Below are positions 2,379-7,893 of a stretch of DNA of 64,000 bases, piece after piece. A program made the translations under genes and the position numbers. The notes under the pieces are model-generated. The model saw only the letters and a program-made list of their open reading frames with translations, was not told the origin of the DNA and made no database searches. Origin of the DNA: Candidatus Latescibacterota bacterium (lineage in GTDB: Bacteria > Latescibacterota > UBA2968); assembly GCA_965208125.1 (NCBI GenBank), contig OZ242320.1, forward strand, positions 1,376,001 through 1,440,000, written 5' to 3'. The first letter of the stretch is position 1, and each line of letters begins with the position of its first letter.

Positions 2379-3194
2379 ATGAAAGTTCTGATCATGTGTG
2401 ACATGGAAGGCGTAAGCGGCATCGTCGTGTGGGAGCAGGTCAGCGGCGGGGCGGCCATGTACGAAGAGGGTCGCAAGCTGTATACCGAAGAGATCAACGC
2501 CGCTGTGCGCGGCGCCAAGGCCGCCGGGGCTACGCAGGTCGTCGTGGTTGACTGTCACGGCGCCGGAAAGGGGTGGACGTTCAACTCCCTGATCCCTGAC
2601 CGGCTCGACCCCGACTGTGAATGGGTCGCCCACCACGCATGGGGCCGCTATACCGAAATGTGGGAAAACGGATGCGACGCCTGCCTGCTCATCGGCATGC
2701 ACGCCCGCAACAACACGCCGGATGGGGTGCTGAGCCATACCATCTCGGGCGTGAAATACAGGAACCTCTGGTTCAACGACGATCTGGTCGGCGAAACCGG
2801 CGTCAACGCCGCTCTCAACGGGCACTACAACGTACCGGTTGTGCTCGTCACTGGCGATGAGGCAGTCTGCCGGGAGGCGCGGGAACTGCTCGGCGACCGC
2901 CTCCCGACCGTCGCTGTGAAAAAGGGACTTAGCCGATTCAGCGCCCGCCAGATCGCACCGGCCCGCGCCCGTCAGATGATCGAAGACGGCGTCCGAAACG
3001 CCCTGCAAGATCTCACCGTCACCCGCCCCTATGTGCCGGATAAACCGACGACGATCAAGATAGAAGTCGGTAGCGTAGAAAAACTCGCCGATTTCAAGGG
3101 CCGTCCGGGCATCGAAATCACCGGCCCCCTGACCGCCGAAAGCAGAGCGGCAGACTGGATGGCGGCCTGGAACCGGTTCTGGCCCTTTCCCTAA
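2379..3194 (+). CDS. M55 family D-aminopeptidase (DppA-like)
   Basis: DMEGVSG, VDCHG, GMHAR and SHTIS motifs; AAGGAGG RBS before ATG 2379. Confidence 0.9.
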   Translation: MKVLIMCDMEGVSGIVVWEQVSGGAAMYEEGRKLYTEEINAAVRGAKAAGATQVVVVDCHGAGKGWTFNSLIPDRLDPDCEWVAHHAWGRYTEMWENGCDACLLIGMHARNNTPDGVLSHTISGVKYRNLWFNDDLVGETGVNAALNGHYNVPVVLVTGDEAVCREARELLGDRLPTVAVKKGLSRFSARQIAPARARQMIEDGVRNALQDLTVTRPYVPDKPTTIKIEVGSVEKLADFKGRPGIEITGPLTAESRAADWMAAWNRFWPFP

Positions 3195-3340
3195 ACAGAA
3201 ATCGGTGTAGCCCCCGTCGCAAACTGGCATACGGTTAACCGAAAGCGGCACGAAGTTGCCCGATACCCACCTCAGAAAACGATTTCTATGCCCACCAATC
3301 CGTTCAATTCTAAGGGCTTTTCAAAGTGTACTTGCAGAAT

Positions 3341-3778
3341 CTACTGGCAATCAGGAATTTCAAATTCTCCAATATACATCTGGGCCAGTTTCTTGCGCAG
3401 TTTGGGAATCGCGCCTCCGACCGTCTTTCCACCGCGCGACTTACCAAACAGGTGTTGGCTCACGCTGGGAACTGAGATGCCGAGTTGTTGGGAAATTTCG
3501 TGTTCGGTCATTTTCCTGAAAAAGTAAAGGTGTACTATTTCCCTTTGTCTGGGGGTAAGAACCTCATCCATCAGCTTGAGAACTAGCGGTATTAATCGGG
3601 ATGTCCACTCACGCTGACGAAATCGTGCCTGGACATCTTCCTCTGTCTCGTAGTGCGGATTCTGTTCAAGAGAGAATTGTTCAAGGATGTTCTGGTCAAC
3701 CCGAACTTCCCAGAAATCAGGATTGAATTTCGTTCTGCGGGAAAGTCTGGTTTGGGATTTGTTGTAGGATTTGCTCAA
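3341..3778 (-). CDS. Sigma-70 region-4-type HTH protein with no recognisable region 2
   Basis: LTPRQREIVHLYFF..MTEHEISQQLGISVPSVSQHL; TTG start at 3778 chosen from the GGAGG RBS. Confidence 0.75.
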   Translation of the reverse strand: MSKSYNKSQTRLSRRTKFNPDFWEVRVDQNILEQFSLEQNPHYETEEDVQARFRQREWTSRLIPLVLKLMDEVLTPRQREIVHLYFFRKMTEHEISQQLGISVPSVSQHLFGKSRGGKTVGGAIPKLRKKLAQMYIGEFEIPDCQ

Positions 3779-3821
3779 ACCGACACCTCCTGTCACTTCA
3801 GCGGAGAGGGGGTGCCGGGCC

Positions 3822-3904
3822 AAAAAAACACGGTTGAACAGCCCCTTTCCATTAGAAAAGTGGAAAAGGCCCATCCAACCGTTATTAGCGGCTGGGCTGA
3901 CCAA
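3822..3904 (-). ncRNA. Putative structured RNA, copy 1 (three-way junction, CUAAUAA loop, U7 tail) in the leader of the sigma-4 gene
   Basis: CCAGCCG-CUAAUAA-CGGUUGG hairpin, CCUUUUCCA/UGGAAAGGG hairpin, closing stem, then a U run; G-U pairs only on the minus strand. Confidence 0.5.
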
Positions 3905-3938
3905 AGGCGTAATCTTTGGCCTTTATTTTATCAATTTC

Positions 3939-3967
3939 AATATATCTCAGATACTCTTTGGTGTCAA
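3939..3967 (-). promoter_or_regulatory. Sigma70-type promoter
   Basis: TTGACA-17bp-TATATT on the minus strand. Confidence 0.7.
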
Positions 3968-3977
3968 GACTTTAGGA

Positions 3978-4047
3978 AGAAAAAGTGCCCTGGCGGGCCC
4001 CTTTTCAGGGCGGCGACCGTTATTAGCGGCCACCTCCCACCAGGGCA
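3978..4047 (-). ncRNA. Putative structured RNA, copy 2 (three-way junction, CUAAUAA loop, GAAA tetraloop, U tail)
   Basis: 12-bp P1 UGCCCUGGUGGG/CCCGCCAGGGCA, 8-bp P2 GGUGGCCG-CUAAUAA-CGGUCGCC, P3 CCCU-GAAA-AGGG. Confidence 0.6.
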
Positions 4048-4460
4048 ATAAACCGTAAAGGTCTTCACCTATACACAAAATATAAGGCACTTTTCAAAGT
4101 CCTATAGTAAAAATTCGAAAAAAAATATAATCATAGGTGTGTTTCTCTACACAACGGATTTCGACCGACAAAAGGGCGCGTATATCCCGGATGTGTTACA
4201 GATTCAGGTACCGCAACCTGAAACGCGTTACCGCATTCAATATCGCGTGCGTCACCATCCCGGCAATCCAGTCGGTGTCAAAGGCAAGGGGTTTTATCAG
4301 AAATGCGCGTAAAACCCACTCGCAGAGAGCTTTAGCGTTGGGTCGCATGGCGAAGGGCTTAGAATTTGCGGGGTGGCTTTAGCTTGGGGATAGTCCTCAA
4401 GGGACTATCGGTGGCGGTGGAGCGGTGTACAAGTGCGCCAGCACTTCATCAACATTTTGC

Positions 4461-4489
4461 TTGACACAAACAGAGCATAAATATATATT
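4461..4489 (+). promoter_or_regulatory. Promoter for tnpB, probably a hybrid across the insertion junction; leaderless mRNA
   Basis: TTGACA-17bp-TATATT; the ATG lies 7 nt after the -10 box with no RBS. Confidence 0.6.
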
Positions 4490-5662
4490 TTTATTATGGT
4501 TAAGTCATTAAAATACAGATTGCGTCCAACCCAAAAGCAAGAACAAATCTTGCTGGCGCATATTGACGAATGTCGTATTCTCTACAACCAACTACTCTGT
4601 GCCAGAATACAAGCATGGAAAAATGAGAATAAGTCTCTCTCGCAATATGACCAGACCAAAACAATACCATTGTTAAAACAACAACACGCCGCATTCAAGC
4701 AAGTATATAGTCAAGTGTTGCAACAAGTATCACAGAGAGTAGATTGGGCATTCAAAGGATTCTTTCGTCGCATCAAACAGAAAGAAAAGACGGGCGAGAA
4801 ATCTGGCTTTCCCAGATACAAGGGTCAGAATCGCTATGATTCTATCACCTATCCCTCAGTTTGCCAATGGATGTCGATTGGACAACAAGGGTTTGCGATT
4901 GGGCAGTATTGGTTGCATTCGCATTGTCCAGCACAGGCCACTTGAGGGTATCCCTAAGTCTTGCACAATCACACGCACAGCAACAGGCAAATGGTTTGTA
5001 TCTATCTCTTGCGATATTGGCGAAAAAGATAAGAAACCAAACACTAACTCTGCTGTTGGCATTGACGTGGGTCTCAATTCCTTTGCGGTCACCAGTGACG
5101 GACAGAAAATAGAGAATCAGAGATTTTTTCGCAAAGAGGAAAAAACCCTTGCCAGAGCACAGCGCAAATGGGACGCGGTGAAAAAAAGACCCAAGACCGA
5201 CGCCACAAAAGAAAAACGTCGTAAAGTCATTGCCAGAGTGCATGAGCGTATCCGTAATAAGCGACATAACTTTGCTCATCAAGAATCAAGAAAAATGGTC
5301 AATCGTCACAATTTCATAGCCGTCGAGAAATTGGACGTTAAAGAGATGCAGAAGAACAAGCGATTGTCTAAATCAATAGCAGACGTAGCATGGTCCCTGT
5401 TTCGGCACTGTCTCAAATACAAAGCGGAAGAAGCTGGTATTGGATTCAAAGCCGTCAAGCCTGACTATACGTCACAAGATTGCTCTGCATGCGGACATAG
5501 AGAGAAGAAAGCACTTTCTGATCGTGTGCATCATTGCAAGGCGTGTGGCTATACGACGGACAGAGACCACAATGCTGCGATAAACATATTGACGTTGGGG
5601 CTACAACGTCAGGCGGATTGACCGCCAAGAAGCTCAACTGCTCTATCGTTGGGAGTAGTCAC
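4466..5662 (+). mobile_element. Non-autonomous IS200/IS605-family (IS1341-like, tnpB only) element
   Basis: tnpB with no tnpA; right end GAAGCTC...GGGAGTAGTCAC; left junction placed after a TAM-like TTGAC (+/-1 bp). Confidence 0.75.
4496..5621 (+). pseudogene. tnpB: RNA-guided endonuclease TnpB split by a +1 frameshift near 4853-4855
   Basis: N-terminal KYRLRPT..Q HTH, GIDVG, AVEKL, CSACG/CKACG zinc finger, DRDHNAAINI; removing one C gives SITYPQFANG in one frame. Confidence 0.9.
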
Positions 5663-7893
5663 CGATAATTGTCCTGGTAGGGATTTGCCCCATGGAACGC
5701 ACTGTAAAGCGGCTGCCAATCCCAGCTCGGGCCCACATCCCGTGTGGTTAGAGGACGATTCAGGTCTAACTTATCTCCCAGATCCCTGAGGTCCATGAGC
5801 TTGTAAAGAGGATGTCCTTTGTCGATAAGTTTATCTTTTTGCTTGTGGACAACTCCATAGAGATCAATGGGAAGCATGTCGTAGTTTGGAACGCGAAAGC
5901 CCGGAGGTATCGCAATAGGCGTAACGAGTAAGCCGTTGTGGTCTCGGCTGACGGCTCCTCGTGAGATAAAGGTAAGTCCTTTCAGGTTTTGAGTTATTTG
6001 TCTTGCGTTTTCTTCTTTGCCGTTGGAGGTATCGTGTTCATAAATTTCTGTCACGGGACTTGAGATGAGATTGGAGATGAACGCGTTTTGTTCCCAGACG
6101 CCATAGTGAACGAGTGAAAAGGTTTTTTGGGGTTTGGAGGTAGCAGCTTCGCGATGGTAAAAGAGATTGCCTATGAAGGTATTGTTGATGGGATGTGTGA
6201 ACTTGAATCGTTCTTCTGGGGGCGTGGTATGGGTATAAGTACCTTGTTGAACTGCCTGTTGTGTCTCGCTGAGTCGTCGTGCGACAAAGTCCCTTCGAGA
6301 ATATTTCCCCATAAAGTTTACAAAAGGCACATCGGCTGGTGCATCAAACGTGTTATAAGCAACACACCAATCGGTAGTGGCACTGTGCCCGCCCTGTGGA
6401 CCCGCTGCGCCTTCACCCATACGAAAGATAGCGATGGTGTTTCCATTGCCCCCAGGTGTATTTCTTCCGTTGACGCGAAAATAGTTGCCGACTATGATGT
6501 GGTTTGTATCCCACCCGATGATGGACATCGCCGCTCGTTGTAAAAAATAGCTGTGAACAATATAAGCATAGCCTCCCCCTCGCAAACTGAGGTATCTGTT
6601 ACAGTCTTCCACCGTGTTGTTGAGCCAGAGAAAACCTCCCATTTTGCCAACAAAGTGTTCTTCATCGCCTTCGCGATTGCCCGCGATTAAATTTGCATCA
6701 AAGATACTCTCGGAATCTCGATTACCAATGCGGCCGAGTCTCGAAAAGCTATTCTCTATATTTTGAAAAAAATTGTGATCAACCCGCACGCTGATGGGAT
6801 TGTTTGTGCCTTGCCCCTGTTCTAGTCCACCAGATCCGACATGGGTGTTATCGAGCAGGATATGAGCCCTGTTGATGAAGGCACAATGGTCAATTCGAGT
6901 AAACCGGGCTACTTTGTCGTTGGCTCTGAGGGAAGTGCCAAGGAGGCCTCCTGTCCACCTATCTGCCTGGCCGCGGGGATAAAAAACACACTCTGTGATG
7001 CGATTGTGATCCCCTCTAATGGTAATCGGCTTGGGATACTGGGTTCTGCCTATTTTAGTATTTGAACTGATATCTTGAAAGATAAACCCATGAAACACAT
7101 TGTGATCGCCTGAGATATCAAAAACAGTGTTTCCCGTAATAATAACCGCCCCAGGGGTGACAGCCCGCAGTTCAAACGTATCGTACCGACTGACGTCCGT
7201 TTTTGAAAACGCAATATGCCCTAAGTCTGTGTAAGTGCCATCTGCAAAAACGATGGTCGCGGGACCCGATACATCCTCTATGACGCTGGCGATATCGTCG
7301 GTGGTGGGAGAAACCGTAACGGTCTGCTTTTTGTAAATTGACACAGTCGTTGAGCCTATTTTATTCCTCGTTTGCGACAGCAACTCTACAACGAGAAAGT
7401 AAGTCTCGTTTTGCCACTCTGCAGGTTCGATTTTCAATCGCACTTCTCCTGTTTTTTCATCGATAGCGAAAGTGGCTGCTTTTTGTTGGTGATCTTCTTG
7501 TGTGGATTCCAAAACGTAATGGTGAACGGCTGCAAGATTCCCTTTGAGAAGAATGACGCCAATGGACTCGCCTGTTTTGGCAAGCGTCGAAACCCCAAAG
7601 AGCGATTCACCTTGAAGATCACTGACGGACCCGGTAGTTCTTTTGCCAAAGCTACTGACAAAAACCAGAAAATCGTCAAATCCAATCGCACCATCGCCAT
7701 TCAGGTCGTATCTTGCCTCATACATCTTTTGACCTTCCTGAGACCCAAACGCGCCTACAAACAACAAAAAGTCGGAAAAATCGACCACACCACTCTCGTC
7801 AAAGTCGGGCGAAGGCACCGCAGACAGCGATTGGATCAACAGCGCGATGAGCACAATTGTAAGCGTTTGTGCTAAACGCATGCGAAGTAGCAT
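5659..7893 (-). CDS. Secreted polysaccharide lyase, PL6/chondroitinase B-like beta-helix, with N-terminal dockerin-like double EF-hand and cadherin-like domain
   Basis: Signal peptide; DFDESGVVDFSDF and DLNGDGAIGFDDF; GPATIVFADGTY, RIDHCAF, LSLRGG, RPLTTRDVGPSW. Confidence 0.7.
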   Translation of the reverse strand: MLLRMRLAQTLTIVLIALLIQSLSAVPSPDFDESGVVDFSDFLLFVGAFGSQEGQKMYEARYDLNGDGAIGFDDFLVFVSSFGKRTTGSVSDLQGESLFGVSTLAKTGESIGVILLKGNLAAVHHYVLESTQEDHQQKAATFAIDEKTGEVRLKIEPAEWQNETYFLVVELLSQTRNKIGSTTVSIYKKQTVTVSPTTDDIASVIEDVSGPATIVFADGTYTDLGHIAFSKTDVSRYDTFELRAVTPGAVIITGNTVFDISGDHNVFHGFIFQDISSNTKIGRTQYPKPITIRGDHNRITECVFYPRGQADRWTGGLLGTSLRANDKVARFTRIDHCAFINRAHILLDNTHVGSGGLEQGQGTNNPISVRVDHNFFQNIENSFSRLGRIGNRDSESIFDANLIAGNREGDEEHFVGKMGGFLWLNNTVEDCNRYLSLRGGGYAYIVHSYFLQRAAMSIIGWDTNHIIVGNYFRVNGRNTPGGNGNTIAIFRMGEGAAGPQGGHSATTDWCVAYNTFDAPADVPFVNFMGKYSRRDFVARRLSETQQAVQQGTYTHTTPPEERFKFTHPINNTFIGNLFYHREAATSKPQKTFSLVHYGVWEQNAFISNLISSPVTEIYEHDTSNGKEENARQITQNLKGLTFISRGAVSRDHNGLLVTPIAIPPGFRVPNYDMLPIDLYGVVHKQKDKLIDKGHPLYKLMDLRDLGDKLDLNRPLTTRDVGPSWDWQPLYSAFHGANPYQDNYR

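Follow-up and report, generated by a model that had tools for sequence, protein, structure and literature searches.

A conserved RNA leader of probable terminator/antiterminator type, absent from Rfam, upstream of a sigma-70-region-4-only gene in Candidatus Latescibacterota

The window analysed in this study is a stretch of 64,000 nucleotides (nt) from contig OZ242320.1 (positions 1,376,001 to 1,440,000), which belongs to a metagenome-assembled genome (MAG) of Candidatus Latescibacterota of 5,747,750 bases (5.75 Mb) that is 96% complete. On its minus strand lies a gene for a small helix-turn-helix (HTH) protein with sigma-70 region 4 only, preceded by a 5' regulatory region of composite build, some 330 nt long (minus strand, 3779-4112 of the window), in which the same hairpin core occurs twice. 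These identical hairpins are part of a conserved, uncatalogued RNA leader of the attenuator type. In the direction of transcription the locus comprises the following features:

4065..4094, minus strand: conserved block E1 (AAAAGTGCC, N10, GTGTATAGGTGA), a family-wide signature, promoter-like or operator-like
3986..4047, minus strand: copy 2, or element E2, a three-way junction on which minimum free energy (MFE) and centroid structures agree (z -3.83)
3975..3985, minus strand: U-rich tract CUUUUUCUUCC behind copy 2, variable within the genus
3939..3967, minus strand: sigma-70-type promoter TTGACA-17-TATATT (promoter scan, 11/12)
3899..3921, minus strand: 5' hairpin opening the transcript of this promoter, found by folding
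3875..3895, minus strand: hairpin H, copy 1 (CCAGCCG / CUAAUAA / CGGUUGG), candidate antiterminator
3830..3882, minus strand: terminator hairpin T (12 base pairs, internal loop, 9 base pairs)
3822..3828, minus strand: U7 tract of the leader terminator, read from the sequence
3780..3818, minus strand: hairpin sequestering the Shine-Dalgarno (SD) sequence, found by folding the post-terminator segment
3341..3778, minus strand: sigma-70-region-4-only HTH gene of 145 amino acids (aa) with a TTG start at 3778

In the 145-aa protein, a basic N-terminal peptide and the conserved motif FNPDFWEV are joined to a long helix and the sigma-70 region 4 HTH. Pfam Sigma70_r4 matched residues 73-110 (E 3.2e-10), and region 4 was matched alone, as the Pfam search gave no match to sigma-70 region 2. 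TIGR02937 scored 42.1 against a cut-off of 42.9 and aligned only with the C-terminal part. Having region 4 without region 2, the protein is not a member of the sigma-70 family of sigma factors. An AlphaFold2 model had a mean predicted local distance difference test score of 78 with residues 1-14 disordered. A Foldseek search with this model returned sigma-region-4 matches only, none of them at E <= 0.001; NCBIfam and a PDB sequence search gave nothing past region 4, and a search of a protein atlas gave generic region-4 clusters only. The TTG start at 3778 agrees with the starts of relatives. A 187-aa extended open reading frame (ORF) over copy 1 was ruled out as coding sequence by indels of 1-2 nt among the six orthologues of the genus, U-run included, and by distant relatives, whose proteins begin at the short form.

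In an initial annotation of this DNA, a 13-nt core had been described twice on the minus strand. This was borne out, as CCGCTAATAACGG is located at 3879-3891 and 4017-4029 on that strand and nowhere else in the window (chance expectation 0.10; two or more copies in 0/100 shuffles). The whole genome of 5,747,750 bases likewise holds two copies, and none of a reversed-pattern control. The initial annotation had also recognised no known riboswitch class, and indeed no Rfam family fits the region or 15 related loci. Using cmscan with Rfam release 15, we obtained nine matches at E up to 10 for window positions 3000-4700, all of them far below gathering (best score 21.3 bits versus a gathering score of 79); the 15 related loci gave no match at gathering. 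Weak matches in the region to GEBRO, Atu_C8 and mir families were taken as chance. Moreover, a genome-wide scan for GGCCG-N5-8-CGGTT found 45 sites versus 65 with the reversed control, and a regulon of such sites was therefore rejected. Loop-loop kissing was discarded by eye, since the CUAAUAA loop is not self-complementary.

Copy 1 lies in the part of the leader that is transcribed from the sigma-70-type promoter, the transcript of which would start near 3932. Folding of positions 3822-3932 gave an MFE of -43.1 (z -4.77), and none of 200 shuffles was as good. This MFE structure consists of T (3882-3830) followed by U7 and consumes the 3' arm of the CUAAUAA hairpin. The 3' arm of H (3881-3875) thus doubles as the base of T, with seven bases common to both. 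A G+C-rich hairpin stands directly before a U7 tract upstream of the gene, and a conserved alternative shares bases with it, which are the marks of an attenuator. In prefix folds of the window leader H appeared first and gave way only when the 3' arm of T had been extended to its last bases. In the 114-nt leader (3932-3819) the energy was -40.1 with the CUAAUAA hairpin forced versus -45.9 without constraint. Behind the terminator, the SD sequence AGGAGG (3791-3786) is paired with an upstream anti-SD of the CCUC type. The initial annotation had placed copy 1 in a terminator-ended leader of the HTH gene, which our data support, and had drawn each copy as a three-stem fold ending in a U run. The three-stem fold holds for copy 2 as it was described. 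The MFE structure of copy 1 is the long terminator hairpin instead, and the conserved form is a hairpin competing with a terminator. The closing stem of the copy-1 junction does pair within the genus, tolerating an A-U to G-U change, and was not found by eye in distant lineages. Therefore, copy 1 is best read as an antiterminator and not as a stable three-way junction.

The protein family is a large one. To compare relatives, we sampled 100 homologues from a protein search, 80 of the 201 loci found in a genome collection and 50 metagenome loci. Within the taxonomic family of the window, 27 of 31 genomes have a member of the protein family. The orthologue of the window gene (94-98% identity) is present in 6/21 genomes of the genus, and a paralogue with 46% identity in all 21 and in 6/10 other genomes of the family. 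The 334-nt leader occurs in exactly those 6 of the 31 genomes which carry the orthologue, as a single copy adjoining the gene. We named the subfamily of the window type B and the widespread subfamily type A. The type-B1 plan comprises E1, E2, a sigma-70 promoter, a 5' hairpin, the H/T pair and an SD hairpin in this order, which recurs, as far as readable, in L113 (61% protein identity), L115 (57%), L117 (54%) and L037 (51%), with no E1 block seen in L113. An analogous 5' hairpin lies in the same place in other B1 lineages (partly by eye). T is the MFE structure in 9/9 B1 sequences from five lineages, forming in relatives a hairpin of about 25 base pairs with a U-tract; U7 is kept in L113, L115 and L117, and L037 has UCUUCUUC. 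The SD region is paired in the MFE structure of the post-terminator segment in the same nine sequences. Prefix folds of leaders from B2 and B3 lineages showed no clear antiterminator in common.

Covariation was analysed on an eight-row MAFFT alignment (A4), in which four rows come from one genus and L113 is off by one column in one arm. For T, 86.7% of the cells were paired versus at most 59% with the partner slid; both partners changed in six pairs, and none of 500 shuffles reached the covariation score of 0.339 (shuffled mean 0.258). For H, the corresponding values were 82.8% versus at most 50%, with two pairs changed on both sides and a score of 0.290 (shuffled mean 0.149; 0/500 shuffles). 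The outer pairs of H covary (C-G, U-G, A-U, U-A), and one pair keeps G-U in 8/8 rows. Since H and T use the same alignment columns 17-24, the two structures are mutually exclusive. The upstream region is accordingly conserved among homologues with covariation in its stems.

The stems also indicate the strand. We tallied 12 hairpins of the GGCCG/CGGUU type from six loci at eight stem positions each. On the strand of the gene 7-8 of the 8 positions pair, versus 3-7 of 8 on the opposite strand, and stem position 4 is a G-U pair in 12/12 hairpins. The G-U bias that had been noticed on the minus strand is thus real, and because of these pairs the structures are assigned to the strand of the gene. 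Selection on RNA structure, as initially proposed, agrees with an RNA-level regulatory region on this strand. The loops behave differently from what had been expected of them. CUAAUAA is found in both copies of all six genus orthologues, and the 12 scored hairpins have GCACG, ACAAAA, AUCAAA, GUUAA, UAUAAGCG, UUAGCG and GACCAGC elsewhere. In lineages at 51-61% protein identity, the homologous hairpins carry GCACG, ACAAAA, UAUAAGCG and UUAGCG, and across lineages the length ranges from 4 to 8 nt. On the loci compared, conservation of the identical loop stops at one genus. With this variation CUAAUAA is not supported as the functional core, and the idea of a mimic of the tRNA anticodon loop with a conserved 7-nt form CU-NNN-AA is removed. 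The stop codons in the loop are not conserved either, as L113 and L115 have none, and in the leader of the window no start codon backed by a ribosome-binding site (RBS) was found that would lead into UAAUAA (frames read by hand).

Copy 2 is the same hairpin module within a multibranch RNA element, E2, which sits between the E1 block and the sigma-70 promoter. Folding of 3975-4062 on the minus strand gave an MFE of -45.2 kcal/mol (z -3.83, equalled by 1/200 shuffles), versus a z of only -1.61 on the plus strand. The three-way junction has a closing stem of 12 base pairs (4047-4036 with 3997-3986), a first hairpin GGUGGCCG / CUAAUAA / CGGUCGCC at 4034-4012 and a second hairpin CCCU / GAAA / AGGG at 4010-3999, and is followed by CUUUUUCUU. 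E2 homologues at seven other loci (B1, B2 and B3) have different closing stems and z from -2.9 to -7.5. In the relatives L115, L117 and L037 we read multibranch elements with 1-4 hairpins of the GGCCG-loop-CGGUU type. The U-rich tract after E2 is kept in the window and in L005, L006 and L008, deleted in L007 and L009 (2/6 genus orthologues) and absent in L115, L117 and L037, the distant B1 lineages having E2. Because the tract is lost or absent in this way, E2 is not generally a stand-alone RNA, and the stand-alone RNA of about 80 nt initially seen in copy 2 is not conserved as such. At its 3' end, E2 of the window also carries AAAAGTGCC in inverted form; the other five orthologues lack this copy, which was therefore treated as chance. 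In two metagenome contigs (L123, L124) the upstream element consists of four GCACUG-loop(3-6 nt)-CAGUGC(C) hairpins, whose 3' half-site CAGTGCC resembles the E1 core AAGTGCC.

The consensus promoter described between the two copies was recovered by the promoter scan at 3967-3939, and L007, L117 and L037 have equivalent promoters 190-200 nt upstream of the start codon; in L113 and L115 no promoter met the scan criteria. A weaker promoter TTGAAA-18-TATAGG, which the initial annotation placed before copy 2, was not listed by the scan, and its hexamers are not the letters conserved in relatives, which are AAAGTGC and TGTGTAWRG. Moreover, E1 ends in a conserved GGTGA, within which the E2 closing stems of relatives already start, so that TATAGG cannot be a -10 element there. 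The conserved letters belong to E1, which reads AAAGTGCC ... TGTGTAWRGGTGA in type-B1 lineages. The block AAAAGTGC(A/C)-N-TGTGTAWRG is conserved across phyla upstream of the gene family, and AAGTGC on the sense strand was found within 460 nt upstream at 80/123 unique loci, versus 16 in antisense and 8 downstream. By its letters, E1 does not look like a sigma-70 or a sigma-54 promoter. In the genome of the window the E1 pattern matched the window locus and one unrelated site; it is too strict for the copy of the paralogue, which was read directly. At loci with E1, the recognition helix is SVSQHLFGK throughout. Some loci of the Gemmatimonadota type (e.g. L052, L058) have two tandem E1 copies. 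Four operonic loci of the Planctomycetota type, in Planctomycetota, Phycisphaerae and Eisenbacteria MAGs (L038, L041, L057, L065) have the helix SVSEHLYGK or a close variant (VVCEHLYGK in L041), no E1 and no leader, and their family member directly follows, or lies within about 80 nt of, a gene with a repeat-rich-looking product (by eye). One further locus with a variant helix does carry an E1-like block 692 nt upstream.

The paralogous type-A subfamily is controlled by leader-peptide attenuation, according to leaders read by eye and single-sequence folds. Type-A leaders begin with E1 and go on with a strong RBS and a leader ORF (20-45 codons). The last codons of this ORF (e.g. ..YPPPER, ..SPPVR, ..FPSPEC) reach into the 5' arm of a long-range stem, which competes with a CGCGG...CCGCGG terminator and U-run. 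This design recurs across several phyla. In the same genome as the window, the paralogue with 46% identity (L004, G000:C1, about 276,338-277,000) has its leader at about 276,700-277,000. There E1 and a sigma-70 promoter are followed by a leader ORF, roughly 20 codons long and served by a strong RBS, whose last residues read ..IPGSPPVR; behind it come a long-range stem, the terminator with which this stem competes, and a U-run. A variant was observed at five Poribacteria MAG loci (L091, L097, L098, L105, L110), with a leader ORF (e.g. MLYLNHTTLNLNVLRTRRWCLCPF..) and a stem GGUGCCUCUGCC / GGCAUAGGUACC, no U-run and a hairpin hiding the SD sequence; from these elements, control looks translational there rather than exerted by termination.

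For the type-B leader we favour a composite mechanism, which we hold to be moderately probable, in which H and T form a switch and H is kept by a trans-acting factor, the best candidate being the product of the gene itself. H is transcribed first, and if closed it would block the base of T. The remaining upper hairpin would then end about ten bases before the U-tract, and with this distance RNA polymerase should read through. If H were displaced, T would be completed and transcription would stop before the gene. Retention of H would thus give read-through. With less certainty, the persistence of H may depend on a factor reading the conserved stem, whose inner pairs are G-C, C-G, C-G and G-U. 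The gene's own product, which would imply autoregulation, is the most economical candidate for two reasons. Outside the window locus the genome lacks the 13-mer, and the E1 pattern found just one unrelated site, so that a factor has no other visible target; and the basic peptide tracks the hairpin leaders. FNPDFWEV is preceded by a basic stretch of about 17 residues in type-B proteins only; type-A proteins start directly with M-YNPDFWEV. This type-B peptide would contact the hairpins, the invariant HTH would read E1 as DNA, and E2 would recruit or titrate the candidate factor. The linkage of leader and gene in the six genomes counts in favour of this mechanism, as does attenuation in the paralogous subfamily.

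Several observations weigh against it. The comparison covers just five deep lineages, with half of the alignment rows from one genus. H is weaker than the competing part of T, by the energies given above, so that antitermination needs help, and in the prefix folds of L117 and L037 it is not the predicted intermediate. A simple terminator scan did not list T, and in fact listed neither of the two U-run structures, which are branched or have loops beyond the limits of the scan. Contigs from RNA libraries (four runs from three studies with sponge and marine metagenome labels) cover the gene and are possibly DNA-derived. One of them, of 476 nt and from an L009-like strain, starts 70 nt ahead of E1 and spans both copies without a break, ending within the gene at 3701. 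These contigs show neither ends nor strand, so that termination is neither shown nor excluded by them. In B3, the E2 hairpins (GCACUG/CAGUGC) differ from the hairpin beside the terminator, which makes one factor for both E2 and H less likely to hold generally. Besides, the N-terminal peptide and the hairpin leaders may occur together because of a single event of shared ancestry and not because they are tied in function.

In a rival reading no factor is involved at all. E2 would then be a terminator or insulator for upstream transcription, H/T a leaky or kinetically tuned terminator responding to RNA polymerase speed, temperature or nucleoside triphosphate level, and the hairpin repeat a local duplication. 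We consider this rather unlikely. In L005-L008 a 744-aa gene does end about 25 nt before the conserved block, and the three-way pairing constraint between the 5' arm of H, the shared segment and the 3' arm of T can alone fix the letters CGGUU and GCCG. No candidate RNA-binding antiterminator was found, CAT_RBD being absent from the 96%-complete genome. Nevertheless, the E2 hairpins are free of any terminator constraint and still keep the letters of the H stem across lineages, in up to three copies per locus, and E2 accompanies the gene whatever lies upstream, as the neighbours differ in L009, L115, L117 and L037. Since the U-run behind E2 is missing in most lineages, E2 is not a general terminator. 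That missing tract also bears on the proposal of the initial annotation, in which copy 2, as a small RNA (sRNA), is a decoy for some ligand or protein bound by copy 1 as well, with the CUAAUAA loop as recognition element. Hairpin arrays resemble protein-sponge RNAs, and both the U-rich tract in the window and three orthologues and the loop shared by both copies within the genus would suit a decoy. Its probability is low, however, as the tract is deleted or absent in five relatives, the loop varies in sequence and length between lineages and often between copies of one locus, and the overlap of the closing stems with GGTGA leaves TATAGG without a -10 role in relatives.

A duplex-DNA operator is still harder to sustain, and we think it very improbable. 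Here two CCG-N7-CGG near-palindromes would bind a dimeric HTH protein, possibly the gene product, and act by roadblock or looping. The 13-mers are identical, the inner stem letters are invariant in all lineages, the sites flank a strong promoter with centres about 138 bp apart, the encoded protein is a DNA-binding HTH, and B3 lineages even have perfect palindromes (GCACTG-N-CAGTGC). The spacing of the half-sites, however, is 5-8 nt in the 12 hairpins, with 5 and 6 within L115 and 6 and 7 within L037, and 3-6 in B3. The halves are asymmetric, with 5' GG and 3' TT in 10/12 hairpins, which means a G-U pair as RNA and a mismatch as a DNA palindrome. Variable loops, variable spacing and the one-strand G-U pattern thus argue against an operator. 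Moreover, there is covariation at the outer stem positions, the 3' half serves in every case as terminator base too, the arrays are enclosed by covarying closing stems, and the recognition helix is invariant while the hairpin sequence differs between subfamilies. A more specific form of the factor-dependent switch deserves mention, although we rate its chances as slight. In this form the type-B protein would be a tethered antiterminator, with region 4 at its usual docking site on RNA polymerase, the beta-flap by the RNA exit channel, the HTH loading at E1 and the peptide gripping nascent GGCCG/CGGUU hairpins, which would prevent completion of the terminator. If true, this would be an N-like or Q-like device made from a sigma fragment in at least seven phyla.

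The leader resembles several known systems in part. In the CAT-domain systems BglG, SacY and LicT, a ribonucleic antiterminator (RAT) hairpin made first overlaps the 5' arm of the terminator, and read-through follows when it is held closed. H is similarly a modest early hairpin, and its 3' side is shared with the 5' arm of the intrinsic terminator T. Unlike in RAT systems, no CAT_RBD protein (PF03123) was matched in the genome of the window, in a search whose controls were positive in 4/14 genomes, sugar genes are missing, the hairpin has an unrelated sequence and further copies of it precede the promoter. Targets of ANTAR proteins (EutV, NasR, AmiR) are paired hexaloop hairpins, one of which overlaps a terminator. 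The small hairpins with conserved stems, one overlapping T, are reminiscent of these, but two adjacent hexaloops are not found, as the loops, 7 nt long in the window and between 4 and 8 nt at other loci, have no letters in common, and the copies of the window are 138 nt apart with a promoter in between. The ANTAR domain PF03861 had no match in the genome, nor in the control genomes. Phage lambda N with its boxB/nut sites is a further comparison. Identical hairpins downstream of two promoters, terminators further downstream and a candidate reader with an arginine-rich N-terminal peptide would form an analogy, whereas there is no relation in sequence or fold, the window hairpin overlaps the terminator itself and no boxA was seen. 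Leader-peptide attenuators of the trp type, as in the type-A genes, likewise place before the gene antiterminator and terminator stems that exclude each other; unlike them, the window leader has no RBS-backed leader ORF. Finally, the DUF2800 RNA (RF02960) of phages is likewise a structured leader with an SD-hiding hairpin before a small sigma-like HTH gene; cmscan gave no match of it to the window region even at E up to 10. The leader is thus a new one of the terminator/antiterminator type, belonging to none of the families tested.

The sigma-region-4-only family is formed by a small, uncharacterised protein of at least eight named groups, many of them uncultured (Latescibacterota, Gemmatimonadota, Poribacteria, Planctomycetota, Zixibacteria, Eisenbacteria, Handelsmanbacteria and Nitrospirales). 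Among the literature listings and abstract openings consulted, none dealt with the family or its leader. Attenuator leaders and a common E1 DNA signature recur across its subfamilies and are not in Rfam. The several layers of control, with a terminator, a hidden RBS and possible autoregulation, suggest a dose-sensitive regulator of RNA polymerase, and the leaders offer a direct experimental handle on the signal of this regulator. If the protein reads its own hairpins, the evolution of sigma domains would be linked to RNA-guided antitermination. Sequence of the organism of the window is present in sponge and marine metagenome runs.

Upstream of the leader, on the plus strand, lies a tnpB gene of the IS200/IS605 family which a frameshift splits into overlapping ORFs at 4496-4945 and 4836-5621, with the domains HTH_OrfB_IS605 in one and OrfB_IS605 plus a Cas12f1-like TNB domain in the other. 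A promoter TTGACA-17-TATATT at 4461-4489 stands just ahead of it. The gene is located within a 1.5-kb insertion (4138-5660) that the closest relatives (L005, L006) lack, and because of this absence the RNAs are not part of the insertion sequence, which was rejected as their owner. Beyond the insertion, a 744-aa ORF on the minus strand (5659-7893) encodes, by eye, a signal-like N-terminus and calcium-binding-like repeats; in relatives this gene lies directly upstream of the conserved block.

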